DNA of 64,000 nt. Source: a virus (Duplodnaviria > Caudoviricetes). The stretch lies in the IMG/VR virus record IMGVR_UViG_3300043812_000026, one strand, 5' to 3'. Below, piece by piece: positions 2,226 through 10,430 of the stretch (its first letter is position 1; each line of letters opens with the position of its first letter). The translations under genes were made by a program, and so were the position numbers. The notes beneath the pieces were generated by a model that worked only from the letters and a program-made list of their open reading frames with translations, was not told where the DNA came from and ran no database searches.

Positions 2226-3361
2226 TGAAAGCTCTAGTATGTGGAGATGTTCATTTAACTAATTATGGAATGTTTAATGAGCCGACAGATGATCCAGCAG
2301 TAGGGTCTCGTCTATCCTATATCTTAAAAGCATTAGATGATTTCTTTGCTTATGGTAAGGAAAATAACATTAATACATATATCATTAATGGAGATTTGTT
2401 TGACTCACGACAGAGCGATAATCCAACTACATTAGCTCATATCCGTAAACACTTTATTACTAGTTTCAGAAATTTAACTAATGTTAATAAGGTTACGCTA
2501 TACTTAAACTCGGGTAATCACGATCAACTTACTCGTAGTGTTACCCCAAATAGTTTAGAAGACTTTGAATTGTATTCTACTGATACTCATAAGATTAAAG
2601 TGATTAATGCAGTTACTCCTATTCAGGTAGATAACAATACTGAATTATTTTTTATTCCCTATGACGAGGATATTAAAGGAACTAAAGAAGCGGTTAAGGA
2701 TTATTTATACAAACATCCTTTTAATGGAGCTGTTAATGTGTTTGCTCATTTAGGTGTAACAGGGGCTACCCAAGGACGCTGGAACCATCGTTTAGGTGGA
2801 GCGTTTAATCTCGATGATCTAGGTTGGAACGCACCTAATGTAAAGTCAATTTCTCTTTCGCATTATCATACCCGCCAGAGCCTTAAAAAAGAGGGTACTA
2901 AAGACGCTTATTATATTGGTGACTTAACTGCTCTTAACTTTAATGATATTGGTAGTGATGGTTTAGGTGTACCTCGTGGATTTGATGAGATTGACTTAGA
3001 TACGGGAGAGCATAAGTTTATTGATTTAACACAAAGTCCCTATAATATTCCTACTTTTAATCAAATTAATTTAGATACAGACGATAATTTTGATTTAGCT
3101 ACACAAGTAGACGATCATTCTTATTATAAGATTAGTTGTAAGTCAAAAGATACTTATGAAAAGTTAGCTAAAGAATTAGAAAATAATTCTATTGCTTCTC
3201 GTGTGCAATTAATCCTTTTGCCTCAAGAGCAACGTGTTACAATTGATGTAGACGCTAATGCTACTGATACTGAATTAGTATCTAAATATTGTGATTTGAA
3301 TTATCCCGAAGTTAAAGATAAAGCATTAGACTACTTAAGAAAGGCAAAAGAAGCAGAGTGA
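2225..3361 (+). CDS. Mre11/SbcD-like recombination exonuclease (metallophosphoesterase)
   Basis: GDVH, NGDLFD, GNHD, AHLG, SHYH motifs. Confidence 0.9.
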   Translation: MKALVCGDVHLTNYGMFNEPTDDPAVGSRLSYILKALDDFFAYGKENNINTYIINGDLFDSRQSDNPTTLAHIRKHFITSFRNLTNVNKVTLYLNSGNHDQLTRSVTPNSLEDFELYSTDTHKIKVINAVTPIQVDNNTELFFIPYDEDIKGTKEAVKDYLYKHPFNGAVNVFAHLGVTGATQGRWNHRLGGAFNLDDLGWNAPNVKSISLSHYHTRQSLKKEGTKDAYYIGDLTALNFNDIGSDGLGVPRGFDEIDLDTGEHKFIDLTQSPYNIPTFNQINLDTDDNFDLATQVDDHSYYKISCKSKDTYEKLAKELENNSIASRVQLILLPQEQRVTIDVDANATDTELVSKYCDLNYPEVKDKALDYLRKAKEAE

Positions 3362-5175
3362 TAACTTTAGAATTAGGAAACGTTTTCATTAAGATAGTTT
3401 TTGAAAATGTGAATGATAAAACAATTGAATGGGTTTGGAGTCAAATTCATACTACTTTTGATCCGTTAGACCCCGAAAGGTTTAGGAAACGTCCTTATAA
3501 CCTTAGAAAAAGTAACGGAGATCGTGTGTGGGATGGCAGGGTAAACCTATGCGAGGAGAAAGATCATTTAGTACCATTAGGGTTTTATGACAGACTAATA
3601 GTGCTTATGAGAAGTATTGAACAATCCTCTGGGATTGTAGTTAAGGTAGTAGATAAACGAGGACCTGCTTTACACTTTAATATTCCAGACGAAATTACTA
3701 TTGATGGTCACGGTAAGGAAAAGACTATTACGTTACGTGACTACCAATATCAATCAGTTGTACAAGCAGAAAAAGAACAATCTGGTATAATCTTAAACGC
3801 TGTGAACTCAGGTAAATCAATTACTGCAATTACAATCTTTAAGTATTTGTTACCAAAATTAAAAGATGGGCAACATTTGCTTTTTATTGCTCCTAACTCT
3901 AGTATTATGAACCAGTTATATGATAAGTTTAGCCATTATCTAGGTGAAGGCATTACTGGTGTTTGGGGCGATGGTAAAAAAGATATTAATAAGCCTATAG
4001 TATGTGCTACCATTCAGAGTTTAGCCTCTGCAATTAAAGAACCAAAGACTAAACCTACTAAAAAGAAAGATAAGCTCTTAGGTCGTTTTGCTGAACGCTA
4101 CGCACCCGCTATTTTAGAATCTGGTGATCCTCGATCTAATCTTGAATTATTAGCTAGAAATTTCCACCCTAACTATAAGTATGAACAAGATGATATTGAA
4201 GAATTACGTAGTCTTTGTATGAATTTACAAACGTCTGATGACGTAGAGGACTATTTTAAGGGTGTACAAAAGCGCTATAAGAAGTTGCTTTATAGTCTAA
4301 ATGAAAGTGCTTATGAGAAGTATTATGACGCTATAGATTTATTAAAGTCTACTAGAGCTGTTATTTGTGACGAGGTTCATCGTGCTGGTGCTATTTCTTA
4401 CTGGAATGTTTTCCACTATCTTGATAACGCTAGAATGAAGCTAGGGTTAACTGGTACTTTAGATAAGACTAAGAAAATTAGTATGGCACATATTCGTGGG
4501 TTGTTTGGAAAAGATTTAGTAAGCGTTACTAATGACCAGATGATTAGTCGTGGTGTATCTGCTAGACCGCATATTAGGCTAGTACCTATTGATGAGCCTA
4601 CAGACCTCGAACCTCGTATTCAAGCTACAATGATGGCTAAGGGATATTCTCAGCTACCTACTGCTGATCTGTTGTCCTATCAGATTGCATATGATTTAGG
4701 AGTAGTCCATAATGAATACCGTAATCGTGTTGTTGCTGAATTAGCTTATAAAGCTTCTTCTAAGCTGGATAAGCAAGCAGTACTAATTATGGTTACGTCT
4801 ATTGAGCATGGAGAATTGATCGGAGAACAGCTTGATAAATTAGGTGCAGAGTACCAATTCTTGCAGGGTAAAGATGATAGTGCTACCCGAGAAAAAGCGA
4901 TTGATGATATTGTTAGTGGTAAGCTTAAAATTGTAATTGCTACTAAGATTTTTGAAGCTGGGATTGATATTCCTAACTTAAAGGTATTAATTCTTTGTGA
5001 TGCTTTAAAGTCTTACATTTCTGTTATTCAGAAGATCGGGCGTGTGTTACGGATAATGCCAGATAAGCGAGATGTGTTTATATTCGATCTTGTTGACAGG
5101 ACACAAAATTCGTTATTTAAACACGCTCAAGATCGAGTAAGGTATTATAAAGACGAAGGTTTTGAAGTTAAATAA
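3358..5175 (+). CDS. Superfamily 2 DNA helicase (UvsW-like)
   Basis: LRDYQ, SGKS, DEVH, LTGT, GIDIPNL, QKIGRVLR motifs. Confidence 0.92.
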   Translation: MITLELGNVFIKIVFENVNDKTIEWVWSQIHTTFDPLDPERFRKRPYNLRKSNGDRVWDGRVNLCEEKDHLVPLGFYDRLIVLMRSIEQSSGIVVKVVDKRGPALHFNIPDEITIDGHGKEKTITLRDYQYQSVVQAEKEQSGIILNAVNSGKSITAITIFKYLLPKLKDGQHLLFIAPNSSIMNQLYDKFSHYLGEGITGVWGDGKKDINKPIVCATIQSLASAIKEPKTKPTKKKDKLLGRFAERYAPAILESGDPRSNLELLARNFHPNYKYEQDDIEELRSLCMNLQTSDDVEDYFKGVQKRYKKLLYSLNESAYEKYYDAIDLLKSTRAVICDEVHRAGAISYWNVFHYLDNARMKLGLTGTLDKTKKISMAHIRGLFGKDLVSVTNDQMISRGVSARPHIRLVPIDEPTDLEPRIQATMMAKGYSQLPTADLLSYQIAYDLGVVHNEYRNRVVAELAYKASSKLDKQAVLIMVTSIEHGELIGEQLDKLGAEYQFLQGKDDSATREKAIDDIVSGKLKIVIATKIFEAGIDIPNLKVLILCDALKSYISVIQKIGRVLRIMPDKRDVFIFDLVDRTQNSLFKHAQDRVRYYKDEGFEVK

Positions 5176-5730: not shown

Positions 5731-8700
5731 ATGAAAAGAATGTTAGTAGTATTGGATCATTATGACGCTGATATGTTTAAAGTGGTTAATAAGAAAGCCG
5801 AAGGAAACTTTTTACATAGTGTCGTAGGTTCAATTCTTTCTAATAAAATTATTGGTCACCCAAAAACAGGTTTAGATACGAAAGATACAACAGTAGACTT
5901 GAAGTTTCTTTATACTGATAAAGTACCCCCTCGTAATAAATACACTAATGCAGTTGTTAAGCCATCTGCTAGTATCTTGCATAAGAAACGTGATGAGATG
6001 GTGCAGTATATCTTAGATACTAAACCCGATATTGTTGTTTCTTATGGAAGTTGGTTTAAGAATGAATTAACTTCTTTATATAAACTTCCTAAAGATATGT
6101 TTGAATTAATTCCGTTTAAGCTACCCCAAAGTGACTTTACTACTTACTTAGTATTTAACCCGTCACTTAAACAACAATTCTTCTTGGGTAGCTATGAACG
6201 AGATAAGATGATTATTAGTAATCGAATGGTTAATCGGTTTTTAAAAGGTGGGATTGAGAATACTAAGCCTCAGTTTGGTAAGTATCGTTTAGTTACTAAT
6301 TATCATGAGGTAGAACGTATTTTTAATGAAGTTTTACCTAAGTACCCAATCATCGCACTGGACTTTGAAACTAATACCCTTGAAACTTATCGTAAAGGGT
6401 GCTAAGGCTATTATGGTAAGTATGAGTTGGGAAGAACATCAAGGTGTTTCGATTCCGCTTAATCATCGTCTTAGTCCTAATTTGTGGACTAAAGAACAGT
6501 TCGATAGTATCATTAATATGATTAAAGAATTAATGATGAAAGAGCAACGTAAGGTATTACATAACTGTATCTATGATATTCATATGATGATGGATATTTA
6601 CGGGCTAGAGTATGCTACTAATTGTGTTGATACTATGCTTATGTATTATGAAACAGTGGATGAGAACCAAGGCGCTCAACGTGGGCTAAAGCACTTAGCT
6701 TATAAGTATACTGATATGGGTGGTTATGAAGACGAACGTGATCAAGCTATTGAACAATACTTAAAGAATGATTATGACCGTTGGTATTCTACTGAAATGG
6801 AAAAGTATGAAAAAGGCGAACGTAGTCGTAAGCCAAGTAAGACACAGTATACAGCTCCTACTAACCAAGTAGACGGTGGTAAGGTAGATTTCGAGTGGTT
6901 GCCTATGGAAACTATTTATAAGTACGCTTCTGCTGATACTGATGTTACCCTCCAACTTTATCACATTTTTGATAAAAAGGTTAAGTCTCGTCCTAAGTGG
7001 GTTAAGTTCTGCTATGAATTCTTCCCACAACTATGCGATACTTTAGCTTATATGCAACATACTGGTTTTCAAATGGATATGGATAAAATGGAGAAATACA
7101 GAGAACACTTCACTACTGATATTGAAGAAGTTACTAAAAAGATGTATGAGGTTTCTCCCGAAATCCAAGAATACGAAAATCATAACCTAGCTCTTTTGCA
7201 AGAACGGGAACAGATTAAAGCTATCAAGCCTGCTGATCGGACACCAGAGCAGAAAGAGAAATTTAAGGAATATGGTAAGCTACGTGGTGAAGATACTAAT
7301 GGTATTCCTAAATACAAGTTTAACCCTGGATCTAGTGAAAAGATTGGCTATGTTTTATACCATATGTTAGGCTACAAGCTACCTGCTGATAAAGAGTATT
7401 TAAAACCAAAAGCTGTCCAGTCTCGTAAGTTAAGCCATCCAGAAAAACTTACGTGGAAAGATTATAAGACTGATCGTAATTCAGCCCTACCCTATATTAA
7501 AAAGACTTATCATGCTCCATTAGTTGATTTATTGTTGGCTTATTCCAACGATAAGAAAATGATTAGCTCTACTGTTGAGGGATATAGTAAGCTGGCTGAT
7601 GCTACGGGAAAATCACATCCTACTTTCCACCCATCTGGTTGCTTAGACGGGGACACTTTAATCCCTACCAGTTTAGGTATTAAGAAATTAAAAGATCTTT
7701 CAGACAATAGAGAAGAAGATACTTTTAAGGATTTGAAAATTGATATTATTAATAAAGATAATAATAAAGAATTAACAGACGCTTTTTATTATTCTGGTAT
7801 TCGAGACTCCTATCAGATCAATTTAGAGAATGGTAGTAGTATTATTACTACTCCTAACCATCCTCTGATTGTTAATAATTTTTTAAAAACTAATAATAAA
7901 ATTCCAATGTACAAATATAAAGGAAAACCTTACTTGACTAACTATTTAAGTAAGTTTAATGATGAGGAATGGCTACCTACTAAAGATATTAAGGCAGGTT
8001 ATTGGATTAAAGGTACTATTGGGGGAAATATTTATGGTAATAAGACAACTATTGAATTTAACGACAGTGAATTTCCTAGCAATACTAGAAGTAAAAAGAA
8101 AAAAGTTACCCTCCCACATGAGTTGACTCCAGAGCTAGCAGAATTCTTAGGAATGTATACTGCTGATGGTAGTTATAGTAGTAGCAAAAAGGGTAGCCAG
8201 ATTCTTATTACTAATGATGATCAAGTTGTTCAGGAGAGGTTGGATTATTTAATTAAACACTTATTCAATGTAGATCCTTATTATCGAGTAGATACAAGAC
8301 ACGGTAGGGAAATTACTGTTAATATAGGCTCTACACAAGTTTTTAGGTATCTTAAAAAAATGTTTAATATTAGTTCCCGAGGGTACGAAAAAACCGTCCC
8401 ACAGTTAATATTAGACTCCACAAAAGAAGTTCAATTAGCTTATTTAAAAGGACTTACGCTTGACTCTAGTATTTATAAGAAAGGGTATCCTTCCATTTAT
8501 TTAAGTACAACCTCGGAGGAGCAGGCAAAGGCAGTCTATTCGATGCTATTAAATATTGGTATCTATGCTAGATTTGCTAAACGTAAGATTTACCCTAGAC
8601 TAGGGTATAAACATGAACATCCCTTATATGATATAATGATTAGTCACGAAGACGTAAAAGTTTTTGTAGAGTGTATAGGATTTGTTGAAATAGAAGAAAA

Positions 8701-10430
8701 GCTTAAACCTTTGATTGCTAAAATAAATAATTATTCTTATACGAAAAAACCTAAACATTATGGTGTTATAAGATATAATAATTTTATATGGTTAAAAATA
8801 AAGTCTATTGATTATTTAGGAAAAAGACCTATGTATGACTTAAAGACTTGTGACACTCATAGTTTTTTAGGTAACAATATTATTAGTCATAATACGTCTA
8901 CTTCTAGGCTCTCTAGTAGTAATTTTAATGCCCAGAATATTAAAAAGCCTACAAGTGACGTTTATGATCCTAATTATAATTATTCAGCTAAAGGACTATT
9001 TAAGTCAAGATTTAAGGGTGGATATATTTTTAATATTGATTATAAGTCACTAGAAATCTTTATTTCTTCTTTAATTGCTAAAGATATTGGTATGATGCAG
9101 GCTTTAATGGATGGTGCTGATATACATAAACGTAACGCTAGTTTAGCTTTTAACATTCCTGTTGATGAGGTAGATTCCGAACATAGATACCTTGCGAAAG
9201 CCGTAGACAAACTTGCGGCCATATTATAGTAATATAATTTGAAAAACATCCCCTAAACGGGCTTACCGTAATAAGGTGGTAAGAGAAGCTAAACCTTATA
9301 ATTTAAGTAGGGCAGGCTAATCCCGTACCAAGTTAAAACAGGTCTAACGACTATATAGGGAATATCCTAATAGGATAAAGATATAGTCTTAACTATAACG
9401 AAAGTTATTAGACAAAAATGAAGTTTTGGTTAATTACTAAAAGTAAGCCACTTTTAACAGTAATGTTAATTGAAAAATATCCCCTAAACGGGCTTACCGT
9501 AATAAGGTGGTAAGAGAAGCTAAACCTTATAATTTAAGTAGGGCAGGCTAATCCCGTACCAAGTTAAAACAGGTCTAACGACTATATAGGGAATATCCTA
9601 ATAGGATAAAGATATAGTCTAATCTACTTAGAAATAAGTAGTTAATATAATTGTTACTTTACGGAGAGTCTCCACAAGGACTTTCAGAGTCACGTGGATT
9701 AACTTTAGAAGAAGCTCAACAGGTTTATGATAAAGTGCTAAGTGCTATGCCACAAATGCAAAAGGCGATTGAGGTTACCGAAGACTTTGTAGAGCAACGG
9801 GGATATGTAGAGACGATTGCAGGACACGTAAGACGATTACCAGAAGCTACTCAGAGTTTAGATTATGGTAAGAAATCTCGTGCTATACGTCAGTCTTTTA
9901 ACGCAGTTGTTCAAGGTAGCGGAGCATATTGTACTAATACTGCTCTAATTATCATTCGCAATACGTTACGTAAATATGGGTTAAAGTCTCGTATTGCTAT
10001 TACGGTGCATGACTCGATCGTATTAGACGTACACCCAGATGAAATTAATATTGTCCCAGCAATGGCAAAGAAGATTATGGAACATTTACCTATTCAAGAT
10101 TTTATTCTTAACATAAATGATTTCCCTACTTTAAAAATTGCTGATAAGTATAAGATTAATGATACTCAATTCCGTTTCCCACTTTTCGGTGAAATTGCTT
10201 TTGGCAAGACTTATGGTGATGATCTTGACTTCGACTTTGATGATTACAAAGCTCTGGGGATTGATAGGTATTATCAATTTAGTATGGAATGTAAGTACAT
10301 TGAGGATAAGGCTAATACTGATTTAAGTAAGGAAGATGATAATGATAAGAAAGCTGAGATTGTTAAACAACGAGATCGGCAATTAGAGGAAATTAGAAAT
10401 AAATATTTTAAAAAGGTTGACAATAAATAA
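5731..10430 (+). CDS. polA: Family A DNA polymerase (N-terminal extension, 3'-5' exonuclease, polymerase), split by one frameshift, an intein and two group I introns
   Basis: ExoI DFET, ExoII HN..YD, ExoIII YASADTD, T.TSRLSS, motif A DYKSLE, motif B reconstructed as RYLAKAVSFGLLYG, motif C VHDS. Removing 1 nt at 6397-6399 and both introns gives a 4260-nt frame (1419 aa precursor, 1001 aa without intein). Confidence 0.93.
7640..8893 (+). mobile_element. Intein with LAGLIDADG homing endonuclease domain (418 aa)
   Basis: Starts CLDGDTLI, block B TPNHP, LAEFLGMYTADG and LAYLKGLTLDS motifs, ends ISHN before +1 Thr; exteins rejoin as HPSG/TSTSRLSS. Confidence 0.93.
9205..9420 (+). ncRNA. Group I intron 1 in DNA polymerase (216 nt, no ORF)
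   Basis: P1 exon GCCGU with GCGGC (U.G at splice site); P10 AAACUU with exon AAGUUU; P7 GACUA/UAGUC; terminal G9420. Confidence 0.9.
9239..9620 (+). repeat. 151-bp direct repeat (9239-9389 and 9470-9620), the two intron cores
   Basis: One mismatch seen (C9247/T9478); offset 231 nt. Confidence 0.95.
9421..9430 (+). other. 10-nt micro-exon of DNA polymerase (completes Val, then Ser-Phe-Gly of motif B)
   Basis: GCC GT|A AGT TTT GGT|TTA CTT TAC GGA restores frame and AVSFGLLYG. Confidence 0.88.
9431..9653 (+). ncRNA. Group I intron 2 in DNA polymerase (223 nt, no ORF)
   Basis: P1 exon UGGU with GCCA; P10 AAAGUAA with exon UUACUUU; same core as intron 1; terminal G9653. Confidence 0.9.

Follow-up and report, generated by a model that had tools for sequence, protein, structure and literature searches.

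Group I introns that lie side by side around a short exon are an already known arrangement. In orf142 of phage Twort, two highly similar group I introns (I2 and I3) surround a 23-nucleotide (nt) exon, and exon skipping has been shown (Landthaler and Shub 1999, as summarized in PMC10136302). In engineered tandem Tetrahymena introns, an identical pair forms a single large ribozyme and causes exon skipping, and differentiated P1, P10, and P9a/P9.2 sequences sufficed to suppress it (PMC10136302). A 34-nt exon lies between two introns of the 23S ribosomal RNA (rRNA) of Coxiella (PMC10136302). Mitochondrial tandem group I introns have one exon base or none between them (PMC5436844, PMC6279837); examples are placozoan cox1, with a 1-nt exon (PMC5436844), and Endoconidiophora mS917 (PMC6279837). 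The polymerase and terminase genes of Herelleviridae often carry 2–3 group I introns, with occasional small exons and exon skipping (PMC11878797). Intron sites in PolA have been placed at E. coli position 674 for SPO1, SP82, Bastille, and Pf-WMP3, at 676 for phiL7, and at 881 for phiI/W31 (PMC3428280). Here we analyze a 64,000-nt stretch of Caudoviricetes DNA (IMG/VR record IMGVR_UViG_3300043812_000026; hereafter the window), in which the host of a pair of twin introns is a Herelleviridae-like Lactobacillus phage. Judged from sequence, motif B of its DNA polymerase (the O-helix, ...AKAVSFGLLYG...) is very probably interrupted by two independent, side-by-side group I introns, and the predicted removal of both, with the 10-nt exon between them retained, would yield an active polymerase.

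The interrupted polymerase gene

The family A DNA polymerase is encoded on the plus strand by two open reading frames (ORFs). In the ORF at 6326–9229, the 3'-5' exonuclease domain is followed by a LAGLIDADG intein and by the polymerase domain as far as ...AKAVDKLAAIL*. The next ORF (9651–10430) opens with LLYGES and encodes the remainder of the polymerase domain. This break had been noticed in an earlier interpretation of the DNA made from its letters and a list of ORFs (hereafter the sequence-only reading). The 3' part of exon 1 after the intein spans 8894–9204, encodes ...RYLAKA plus the GT of a Val codon, and ends with ...GCCGT at 9204, where the final base U pairs with a guide G. It is followed by ORF-less group I intron 1 (9205–9420, 216 nt), the micro-exon AAGTTTTGGT (9421–9430; by codon AAGUUUUGGU), which supplies the third base of the Val codon and Ser-Phe-Gly, ORF-less group I intron 2 (9431–9653, 223 nt), and exon 3 (9654–10430). 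Exon 3 opens with TTACTTTACGG, corresponding to LLYGES, and contains the rest of motif B and then motif C. Intron 1 was identified by a match to Rfam model RF00028, by a guide search, and by an intron with the same site and ends in three related contigs; intron 2 was identified by RF00028, by the guide search, and by segments that trace to introns of terminase genes.

Joining ...GCCGT, AAGTTTTGGT, and TTACTTTACGG... in silico gives RYLAKAVSFGLLYGE, which is motif B. After this joining, both the motif (R..AK...FG..YG, here RYLAKAV-SFG-LLYGE) and the Pfam DNA_pol_A match are present. The exon 1 part covers positions 116–212 of the DNA_pol_A profile and exon 3 covers positions 217–359 (E = 2.3e-27). 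Since the gap of four profile positions (213–216) corresponds exactly to V-S-F-G, the profile serves as an independent check of the junctions. Without splicing, the reading frame meets a stop eight codons into intron 1. The lengths of the two introns, the position of the micro-exon, and the restored S-F-G agree with the sequence-only reading, and the spliced cDNA junction that it predicted is the junction obtained here in silico. We take the two sites in motif B to lie at about E. coli positions 760 and 763/764, with the numbering set via Klenow K758, F762, and Y766. Gene callers will give this polymerase as two fragments that miss three active-site residues.

Two further arrangements were considered and rejected for this region. 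A nested twintron does not fit, as the introns stand side by side and the 10 nt between them are coding: both the reading frame and SFG depend on them. A single intron of 449 nt was dismissed on the ground that exon 1 joined to exon 3 breaks the frame.

Relatives with and without the introns

Among phages with a name, LfeInf of Lactobacillus (Hopescreekvirus, Herelleviridae) is the closest; exon 3 shows 59% amino acid (aa) identity to its polymerase. The LfeInf polymerase is one uninterrupted coding sequence that reads RFKAKSVGFGLMYGE and is colinear, residue for residue, with the spliced product of the window. Two contigs with 89–94% nt identity (L019 and L020) have neither intron nor intein and read GC(G/A)GTTTC(A/G)TTCGGACT..., which translates as AKAVSFGLLYGE. 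The comparison with intron-less relatives that had been proposed as a check on the sequence-only reading came out in its favor, all three relatives being colinear with the spliced form.

Three contigs (G001/L001, L006, and L011) have site 1 occupied by an intron and no other intron here. Its first 58 and last 83 bases are identical to those of intron 1 of the window, its P4-P6 region is different and larger, and it holds in loop L6 a 305-aa ORF that matches phrog_2081 ("HNH endonuclease") and, weakly, NUMOD1. The exon of these three contigs runs uninterrupted as AAGTTTTGGC TTA TT(G/A) TAT GGC GAG. Site 2 is thus empty in them, which confirms the junction of intron 2. The intron-bearing alleles share the exon sequence GCCGT / AAGTTTTGG (Ser = AGT), and the intron-less alleles (Ser = TCA or TCG) differ from them at almost every silent position. 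This difference would be expected if intron 1 moves together with adjoining exon sequence that supports its P1 and P10. At the level of sequence, comparison with the relatives settles the predicted junctions.

Site 2 was occupied in no relative found, and the intron 2 junction was not found in viral contigs. A blastn search of the region against 50,697 phage records gave no match. The 19-nt motif also occurs in L008, L010, L013, L030, and L031; the occurrences in L008, L010, and L013 are chance matches in unrelated sequence.

Group I identity and the shared core

In a local search, both introns matched the full RF00028 model, intron 1 with 45.8 bits (E = 1.9e-10) and intron 2 with 42.4 bits (E = 2e-9). 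They are the only two RF00028 matches in the window, at whose scale the E values are 1.9e-8 and 1.9e-7. Introns in the terminase genes of relatives scored 45.7 and 34.7 bits on the same model. Each twin intron follows a U and has a 3'-terminal G, at 9420 in intron 1 and at 9653 in intron 2. No plus-strand ORF of at least 40 aa, and hence no homing endonuclease, was found inside the twin introns (9205–9653).

The conserved P3-P8 core with the P3/P7 pseudoknot and the J8/7-P7 consensus AAGAUAUAGUC was located in both introns. In intron 1, the P10 guide (9209–9214), the P1 guide (9215–9219), and P2 (9223–9238, GUAA loop) precede P3 (9248–9255/9356–9363), P4 (9257–9261/9322–9326), P6 (9327–9343), P7 (9349–9355/9382–9388), and P8 (9363–9377), and P9 (9395–9408, GAAA loop) stands between this core and the terminal G. 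The corresponding elements of intron 2 are the P10 guide (9440–9446), the P1 guide (9447–9450), P2 (9454–9469, GUAA loop), a core that equals that of intron 1 shifted by 231 nt (P3 at 9479–9486/9587–9594 and P7 at 9580–9586/9613–9619), and P9 (9624–9641, GAAA loop). P3' of intron 1 (9356–9363) passes straight into P8 (9363–9377), which leaves no room for P7.1/P7.2; the introns are therefore compact and do not have the architecture of the IA2 subgroup.

The shared ribozyme core comprises 151 nt on the plus strand, with copy 1 at 9239–9389 and copy 2 at 9470–9620 (offset 231), and contains a single mismatch, at 9247. Beyond it, the two introns diverge in the P1 loop, the guide, P2, and P9; the P2 and P9 stems are unlike between the twins, and the GUAA loop of P2 and the GAAA loop of P9 are kept in both.

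A P2-P8 model with P7 as a pseudoknot was drawn on an alignment of six ORF-less family members. In this alignment, 95.8% of the cells are paired, none of 500 shuffles was as good, and controls in which the model was slid were paired at approximately 36%. Compensatory changes on both sides of a helix were observed at 8 pairs, located in P2, P5, P5a, P6, and P8. P4 and P7 are invariant across the six members and hence uninformative there. Comparison of the window with G001 provides covariation in P4 (ACGGG/CCCGU vs ACAGG/CCUGU) and in P6 (ACC/GGU vs GCC/GGC). The P4-P6 helices were redrawn by hand from covariation, the Rfam alignment being poor there with many mismatch marks, and P9 was read sequence by sequence, as the MAFFT alignment puts the P9 gap in the wrong place.

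Guide sequences fitted to each pair of exons

A guide search free of prior assumptions was used, in which an intron G near the 5' end had to pair with the exon-end U and be flanked by complementarity to both exons. For intron 1 it recovered the guide AAACUU-GCGGC, with a P1 of 5 base pairs (bp) (GCCGU/GCGGC) directly contiguous with a P10 of 6 bp (AAGUUU/AAACUU). For intron 2 it recovered AAAGUAA-GCCA, with a P1 of 4 bp (UGGU/GCCA) contiguous with a P10 of 7 bp (UUACUUU/AAAGUAA). Shuffled guides reached these totals in 12 of 20,000 trials for intron 1 and 185 of 20,000 for intron 2. Contiguous P10 and P1 guides are present in all eight introns of the family (8/8), spread over four gene sites, and P10 covaries with the exon, as seen in the window (AAGUUU/AAACUU) vs the Iacchus intron (AACUU/AAGUU).

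All 10 bases of the micro-exon are guide-paired: six (9421–9426) by the guide of intron 1, forming P10, and four (9427–9430) by the guide of intron 2, forming P1 with a U.G pair at 9430, with no overlap between the two halves. The minimum-energy fold of 9421–9452 alone equals the proposed P1 of intron 2 plus an intron-side extension (UUACU/AGUAA).

Nearly everything that the sequence-only reading had proposed for the ribozymes held up under these analyses. Its two ORF-less group I introns are supported by the RF00028 matches, guide pairing, compensatory changes, and relatives, and the Rfam group I models that it had named as a check do match both introns, though with fewer than 50 bits. The 151-nt core match with one mismatch proved exact. 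A separate guide for each intron, comprising P1 with U.G and P10, was recovered by the unbiased search and tested against shuffles, and the different P2 and P9 stems were seen as well.

Predicted splicing and alternative explanations

In the proposed mechanism, the 3' half of each guide would pair with the end of the upstream exon to form P1, with the U.G wobble at the cut, and the 5' half would pair with the start of the downstream exon to form P10. The standard two-step, guanosine-initiated transesterification would then be expected to end at the terminal G of each intron. Both introns would have to leave and the micro-exon would have to stay. The sequence-only reading had held that skipping of the micro-exon would shift the frame, and the joined exons 1 and 3 indeed run into a stop after 17 codons. 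It had also held that the micro-exon serves P10 of intron 1 and P1 of intron 2, which is the case, and that the order of splicing may be constrained for this reason, which does not follow at the level of base pairing: as the two helices use halves that do not overlap, pairing alone forces no order. Transcription from 5' to 3' may nevertheless favor intron 1, which could finish before intron 2 is complete, and simultaneous docking of both halves of the micro-exon into two active sites appears sterically unlikely.

Several points weigh against the reading of two separately spliced introns. Splicing of the twin introns, its order, and its fidelity are all inferred from the DNA. Neither intron reaches the curated gathering score of 50 bits for RF00028; both scores lie just below it, so that a window scan at the default Rfam gathering threshold is empty and the matches appear with E-value thresholds. 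P1 of intron 2 has 4 bp only. Among the public contigs searched, from which the window's own record may be missing, no other was found to hold the two introns together, and core-motif scans of viral, metagenome, and genome collections gave relatives but no second twin. The identity of the cores allows strands of one intron to pair with those of its neighbor, and the minimum-energy and centroid folds of 9195–9665 do pair the P7/P8 strands across the introns and not within them (-113.3 kcal/mol, z = -3.4). In these models, misfolding and exon skipping are thermodynamically plausible, and one large ribozyme would be energetically competitive. Upstream, the window reads CGTAAAGGG and G001 reads CGTAAGGG; the one extra A near 6395 causes an apparent 1-nt frameshift, which reflects either imperfect sequence or a damaged gene.

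The cross-intron folds would fit the idea that exon skipping is regulated or frequent. In that case the cores would fold into one large ribozyme, exon 1 would be joined to exon 3, and the introns would be a switch or throttle on polymerase output and not neutral passengers. The product would be frameshifted and truncated (...AKAVYFTESLHKDFQSHVD*) and would retain the exonuclease domain. Skipping has been recorded in Twort orf142, in engineered tandem introns that are identical (PMC10136302), and in phage SIOphi (PMC11878797). We nevertheless regard this explanation as distinctly unlikely. No P10 complement to the skip junction was found in either guide, and P1, P10, P2, and P9 are all differentiated between the twins, which is what abolished skipping in the engineered system (PMC10136302). 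In addition, the polymerase is essential, and the micro-exon codes for the conserved SFG of motif B. Another proposal makes the pair one coupled device: separate folding would lead to exon inclusion and active polymerase, a single large ribozyme would lead to skipping and an exonuclease-only protein, and the micro-exon would serve, in an obligatory order, first P10 of intron 1 and then P1 of intron 2. We consider such a device unlikely; if it existed, the phage would gain GTP- or folding-sensitive control of polymerase output.

That the 231-nt repeat arose from a mis-join or from duplicated reads of one intron, or of an intron elsewhere in the genome, is extremely improbable. The repeat is near-perfect, the arrangement is unique among the contigs searched, and single-base indels in the window assembly and in G001 reveal imperfect sequence, all of which could be read as signs of an assembly artefact. 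However, an artefact would create neither a second guide fitted to its own exons nor different P2 and P9 helices with compensated stems, and it would not leave a spacer of 10 nt that supplies precisely the absent residues and mends the frame. It is also very improbable that the polymerase is a pseudogene or that one intron is dead, leaving the arrangement as a functionless relic of a decaying gene. The apparent frameshift at about 6395 (an extra A relative to G001) and the load of three selfish elements in the polymerase gene would fit decay. On the other hand, the frameshift is a single base within an A run, the exons are otherwise open over approximately 3 kb and 89–98% identical to relatives, the intein retains its splicing residues, and the twin cores are 96–98% identical to a core found in a complete phage genome, where it lies within the essential terminase gene.

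Two separately spliced introns remain our preferred reading, and in this form the locus is a compact natural test case of how tandem ribozymes with identical cores avoid mis-splicing. It combines identical cores with distinct recognition helices, and exon inclusion in engineered tandem introns required the same design. Its exon is short enough for the guides to hold every base.

Mosaic structure and proposed origin of the introns

The same ribozyme family is found in the terminase large-subunit gene of related phages (L004 and L005). L005 is part of G002, a genome of 152.7 kb that is complete and has terminal repeats. Terminase intron A sits after ...YTFP and intron B after ...LDEYDR, and the P1 loop of intron B in L005 holds an endonuclease ORF (phrog_559). 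The terminase gene is absent from the window.

Judged by segmental identities, both twin introns are mosaics. P2 and J2/3 of intron 2 match terminase intron A of L004 at 27/27 positions, and the other segments of intron 2 match terminase intron B of L005 at 16/16 (P3 + J3/4), 73/75 (P4-P6), 51/52 (P7 to P7'), and 33/33 positions (P9 to the 3' end). The unique part of intron 2 consists of its first 20 nt only, i.e., the P1 loop and guide. Intron 1 matches the intron of G001 in its guide (16/16), P2 (26/26), and P9 (30/30). Its P4-P6 is identical to that of intron 2 (75/75) and matches terminase intron B of L005 at 73/75 positions and the G001 intron at 42/57. The G001-type P4-P6, which has an extra P5 extension, is common to the distant Iacchus intron (95/147), and the Harbinvirus phages Iacchus and Lpa804 share both this P4-P6 and the endonuclease, at the same site and with GCGGC as the guide here too. 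Of the states seen at site 1, that of G001 is therefore the older.

The sequence-only reading had attributed the pair to duplication or gene conversion of one ribozyme core with re-targeting of the guide. Conversion is supported by the 75/75 identity of P4-P6 with that of intron 2. Simple tandem duplication of intron 1 was rejected, as P2 and P9 of intron 2 match terminase introns instead and mark intron 2 as terminase-derived.

The most economical account that we can infer has four steps. Starting from a gene without introns, a resident intron with an endonuclease gene in L6 would have occupied site 1, as in G001 and the Harbinvirus phages. A terminase-type intron would then have transposed to a position 10 nt downstream and gained a new guide. 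The donor and recipient sites have only GU|UUA in common, which is compatible with low-specificity reverse splicing or illegitimate repair. Finally, recombination via the conserved P3 and P7-P8 segments would have copied P4-P6 of intron 2 into intron 1, deleting the endonuclease gene. Close relatives thus provide an allele series from no intron, through one intron with an endonuclease gene, to twin ORF-less introns, in which the donor segments are traceable. On this account, the series documents how an intron spread ectopically from one gene to another and how a homing endonuclease was lost through gene conversion of one intron by the other, steps that are usually only inferred.

Other elements in the polymerase gene and in related contigs

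The intein of the polymerase (7640–8893, plus strand) comprises 418 residues, with a LAGLIDADG endonuclease domain and the splicing residues Cys1...His-Asn / Thr (Pfam Intein_splicing, E = 1.1e-14; LAGLIDADG_3, E = 5.7e-12). It is positioned in the region ...HPSG|TSTSRLSSSN, and no intein was found at this site in G001, L019, L020, or LfeInf. Together with the two introns, the polymerase gene holds three self-removing (selfish) elements. The reading frame of the gene is broken at 6390–6400, where the ORF at 5731–6405 ends with ...ETYRKGC* and the ORF at 6326–9229 continues in another frame. G001 has a different 1-nt deletion directly after the intein site (at about 1425 of L001). The 1-nt indels in the window and in G001 are probably sequencing errors.

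A 3'-terminal G is near-universal in group I introns. Three related introns apparently end with A (L014 3396–3410 of Iacchus; L032 1800–1812 of Lpa804; L004 4550–4565 and L005 2125–2140, the last on the minus strand). The Harbinvirus polymerase intron ends with ...ACCAUA|AACUUUUGGC in two independent isolates, and terminase intron A ends with ...UUUGUAA|AC(U/C)UAC in two contigs. Two lines of evidence fix these apparent A-ending junctions, namely colinearity of the protein with LfeInf and P10 pairings that covary with the exon, and no G-ending alternative that keeps the frame was found for the A-ending introns. The sole natural precedent found for a terminal A is the hexacoral ND5-717 intron (PMC6545197).

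The terminase large-subunit gene (L004 4356–7800; L005 466–2337, minus strand) is interrupted by two or more group I introns, probably three or four, and endonuclease ORFs are present in some of them. A partial RF00028 match at 6526–6607 of L004 immediately follows a 325-aa ORF. A short way upstream of its terminase gene, L004 carries a TnpB-like 393-aa ORF followed by the Rfam "Transposase-1 RNA" (RF03014, 65.4 bits; 2391–3671 in total). In another viral contig, a group I-like core seems to lie inside a gene resembling that of a transfer RNA (tRNA) (L003, about 6530–6830; L012, about 4500–4800; both minus strand). It has the same P7-P3' motif, followed by ...GAAAUAGUCC, with acceptor/anticodon-arm-like sequence upstream and GGTTCGAATCC as the T-arm downstream. 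An Rfam scan of this tRNA-like core in L003 and L012 gave no match at E <= 0.01.

Comparison with known systems

The precedent named in the sequence-only reading, Twort orf142, is apt: similar tandem introns flank a 23-nt exon there (PMC10136302). As in the window, highly similar introns surround a short exon in a single gene of a Herelleviridae phage, and each has its own splice-site guide. The Twort exon of 23 nt compares with 10 nt in the window, and the Twort introns belong to subgroup IA2, whereas those of the window lack P7.1/P7.2. In contrast to orf142, the host gene in the window is a polymerase and the cores are identical at 150 of 151 positions; exon skipping was shown in Twort and is only hypothetical in the window.

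The Bastillevirinae resemble the window and its relatives in that PolA and TerL are targets, with 2–3 group I introns in each gene and endonucleases of the same families, phrog_2081 for introns of the polymerase gene and phrog_559 for those of the terminase gene (PMC11878797). Unlike the phage of the window, they infect Bacillus, and their introns average 802 nt and mostly contain ORFs; the available part of that report describes no 10-nt exon or near-identical twin pair for them (PMC11878797). The polymerase intron of the Harbinvirus phages Iacchus and Lpa804 resembles intron 1 in its insertion point (AKAV, after GCCGU) and its P1 guide GCGGC, and its endonuclease (37% aa identity) and P4-P6 are homologous to those of the G001 form of intron 1. 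Unlike the introns of the window, it is single, contains an ORF, has a longer 3' half, and apparently ends with A. The authors of the Harbinvirus genomes left this polymerase interruption undecided between an intron and an intein (PMC6669764). The group I introns of other phage family A polymerases likewise occupy conserved functional motifs (PMC3428280), and the sites in the window, in motif B, differ from these.

The mitochondrial and Coxiella cases are similar in that group I introns stand side by side with few exon bases between them. As proposed for the window, they originated when a second intron inserted beside one already in place; one of them arose through the ectopic integration of a paralogue. 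They differ from the window in their organellar or rRNA hosts and in that the introns are not near-identical. Since the mitochondrial exons are even shorter, 10 nt is no overall record. The locus is extreme in its combination of a 10-nt exon, cores that are identical at 150 of 151 positions, a location in the O-helix, and unusually complete comparative intermediates.

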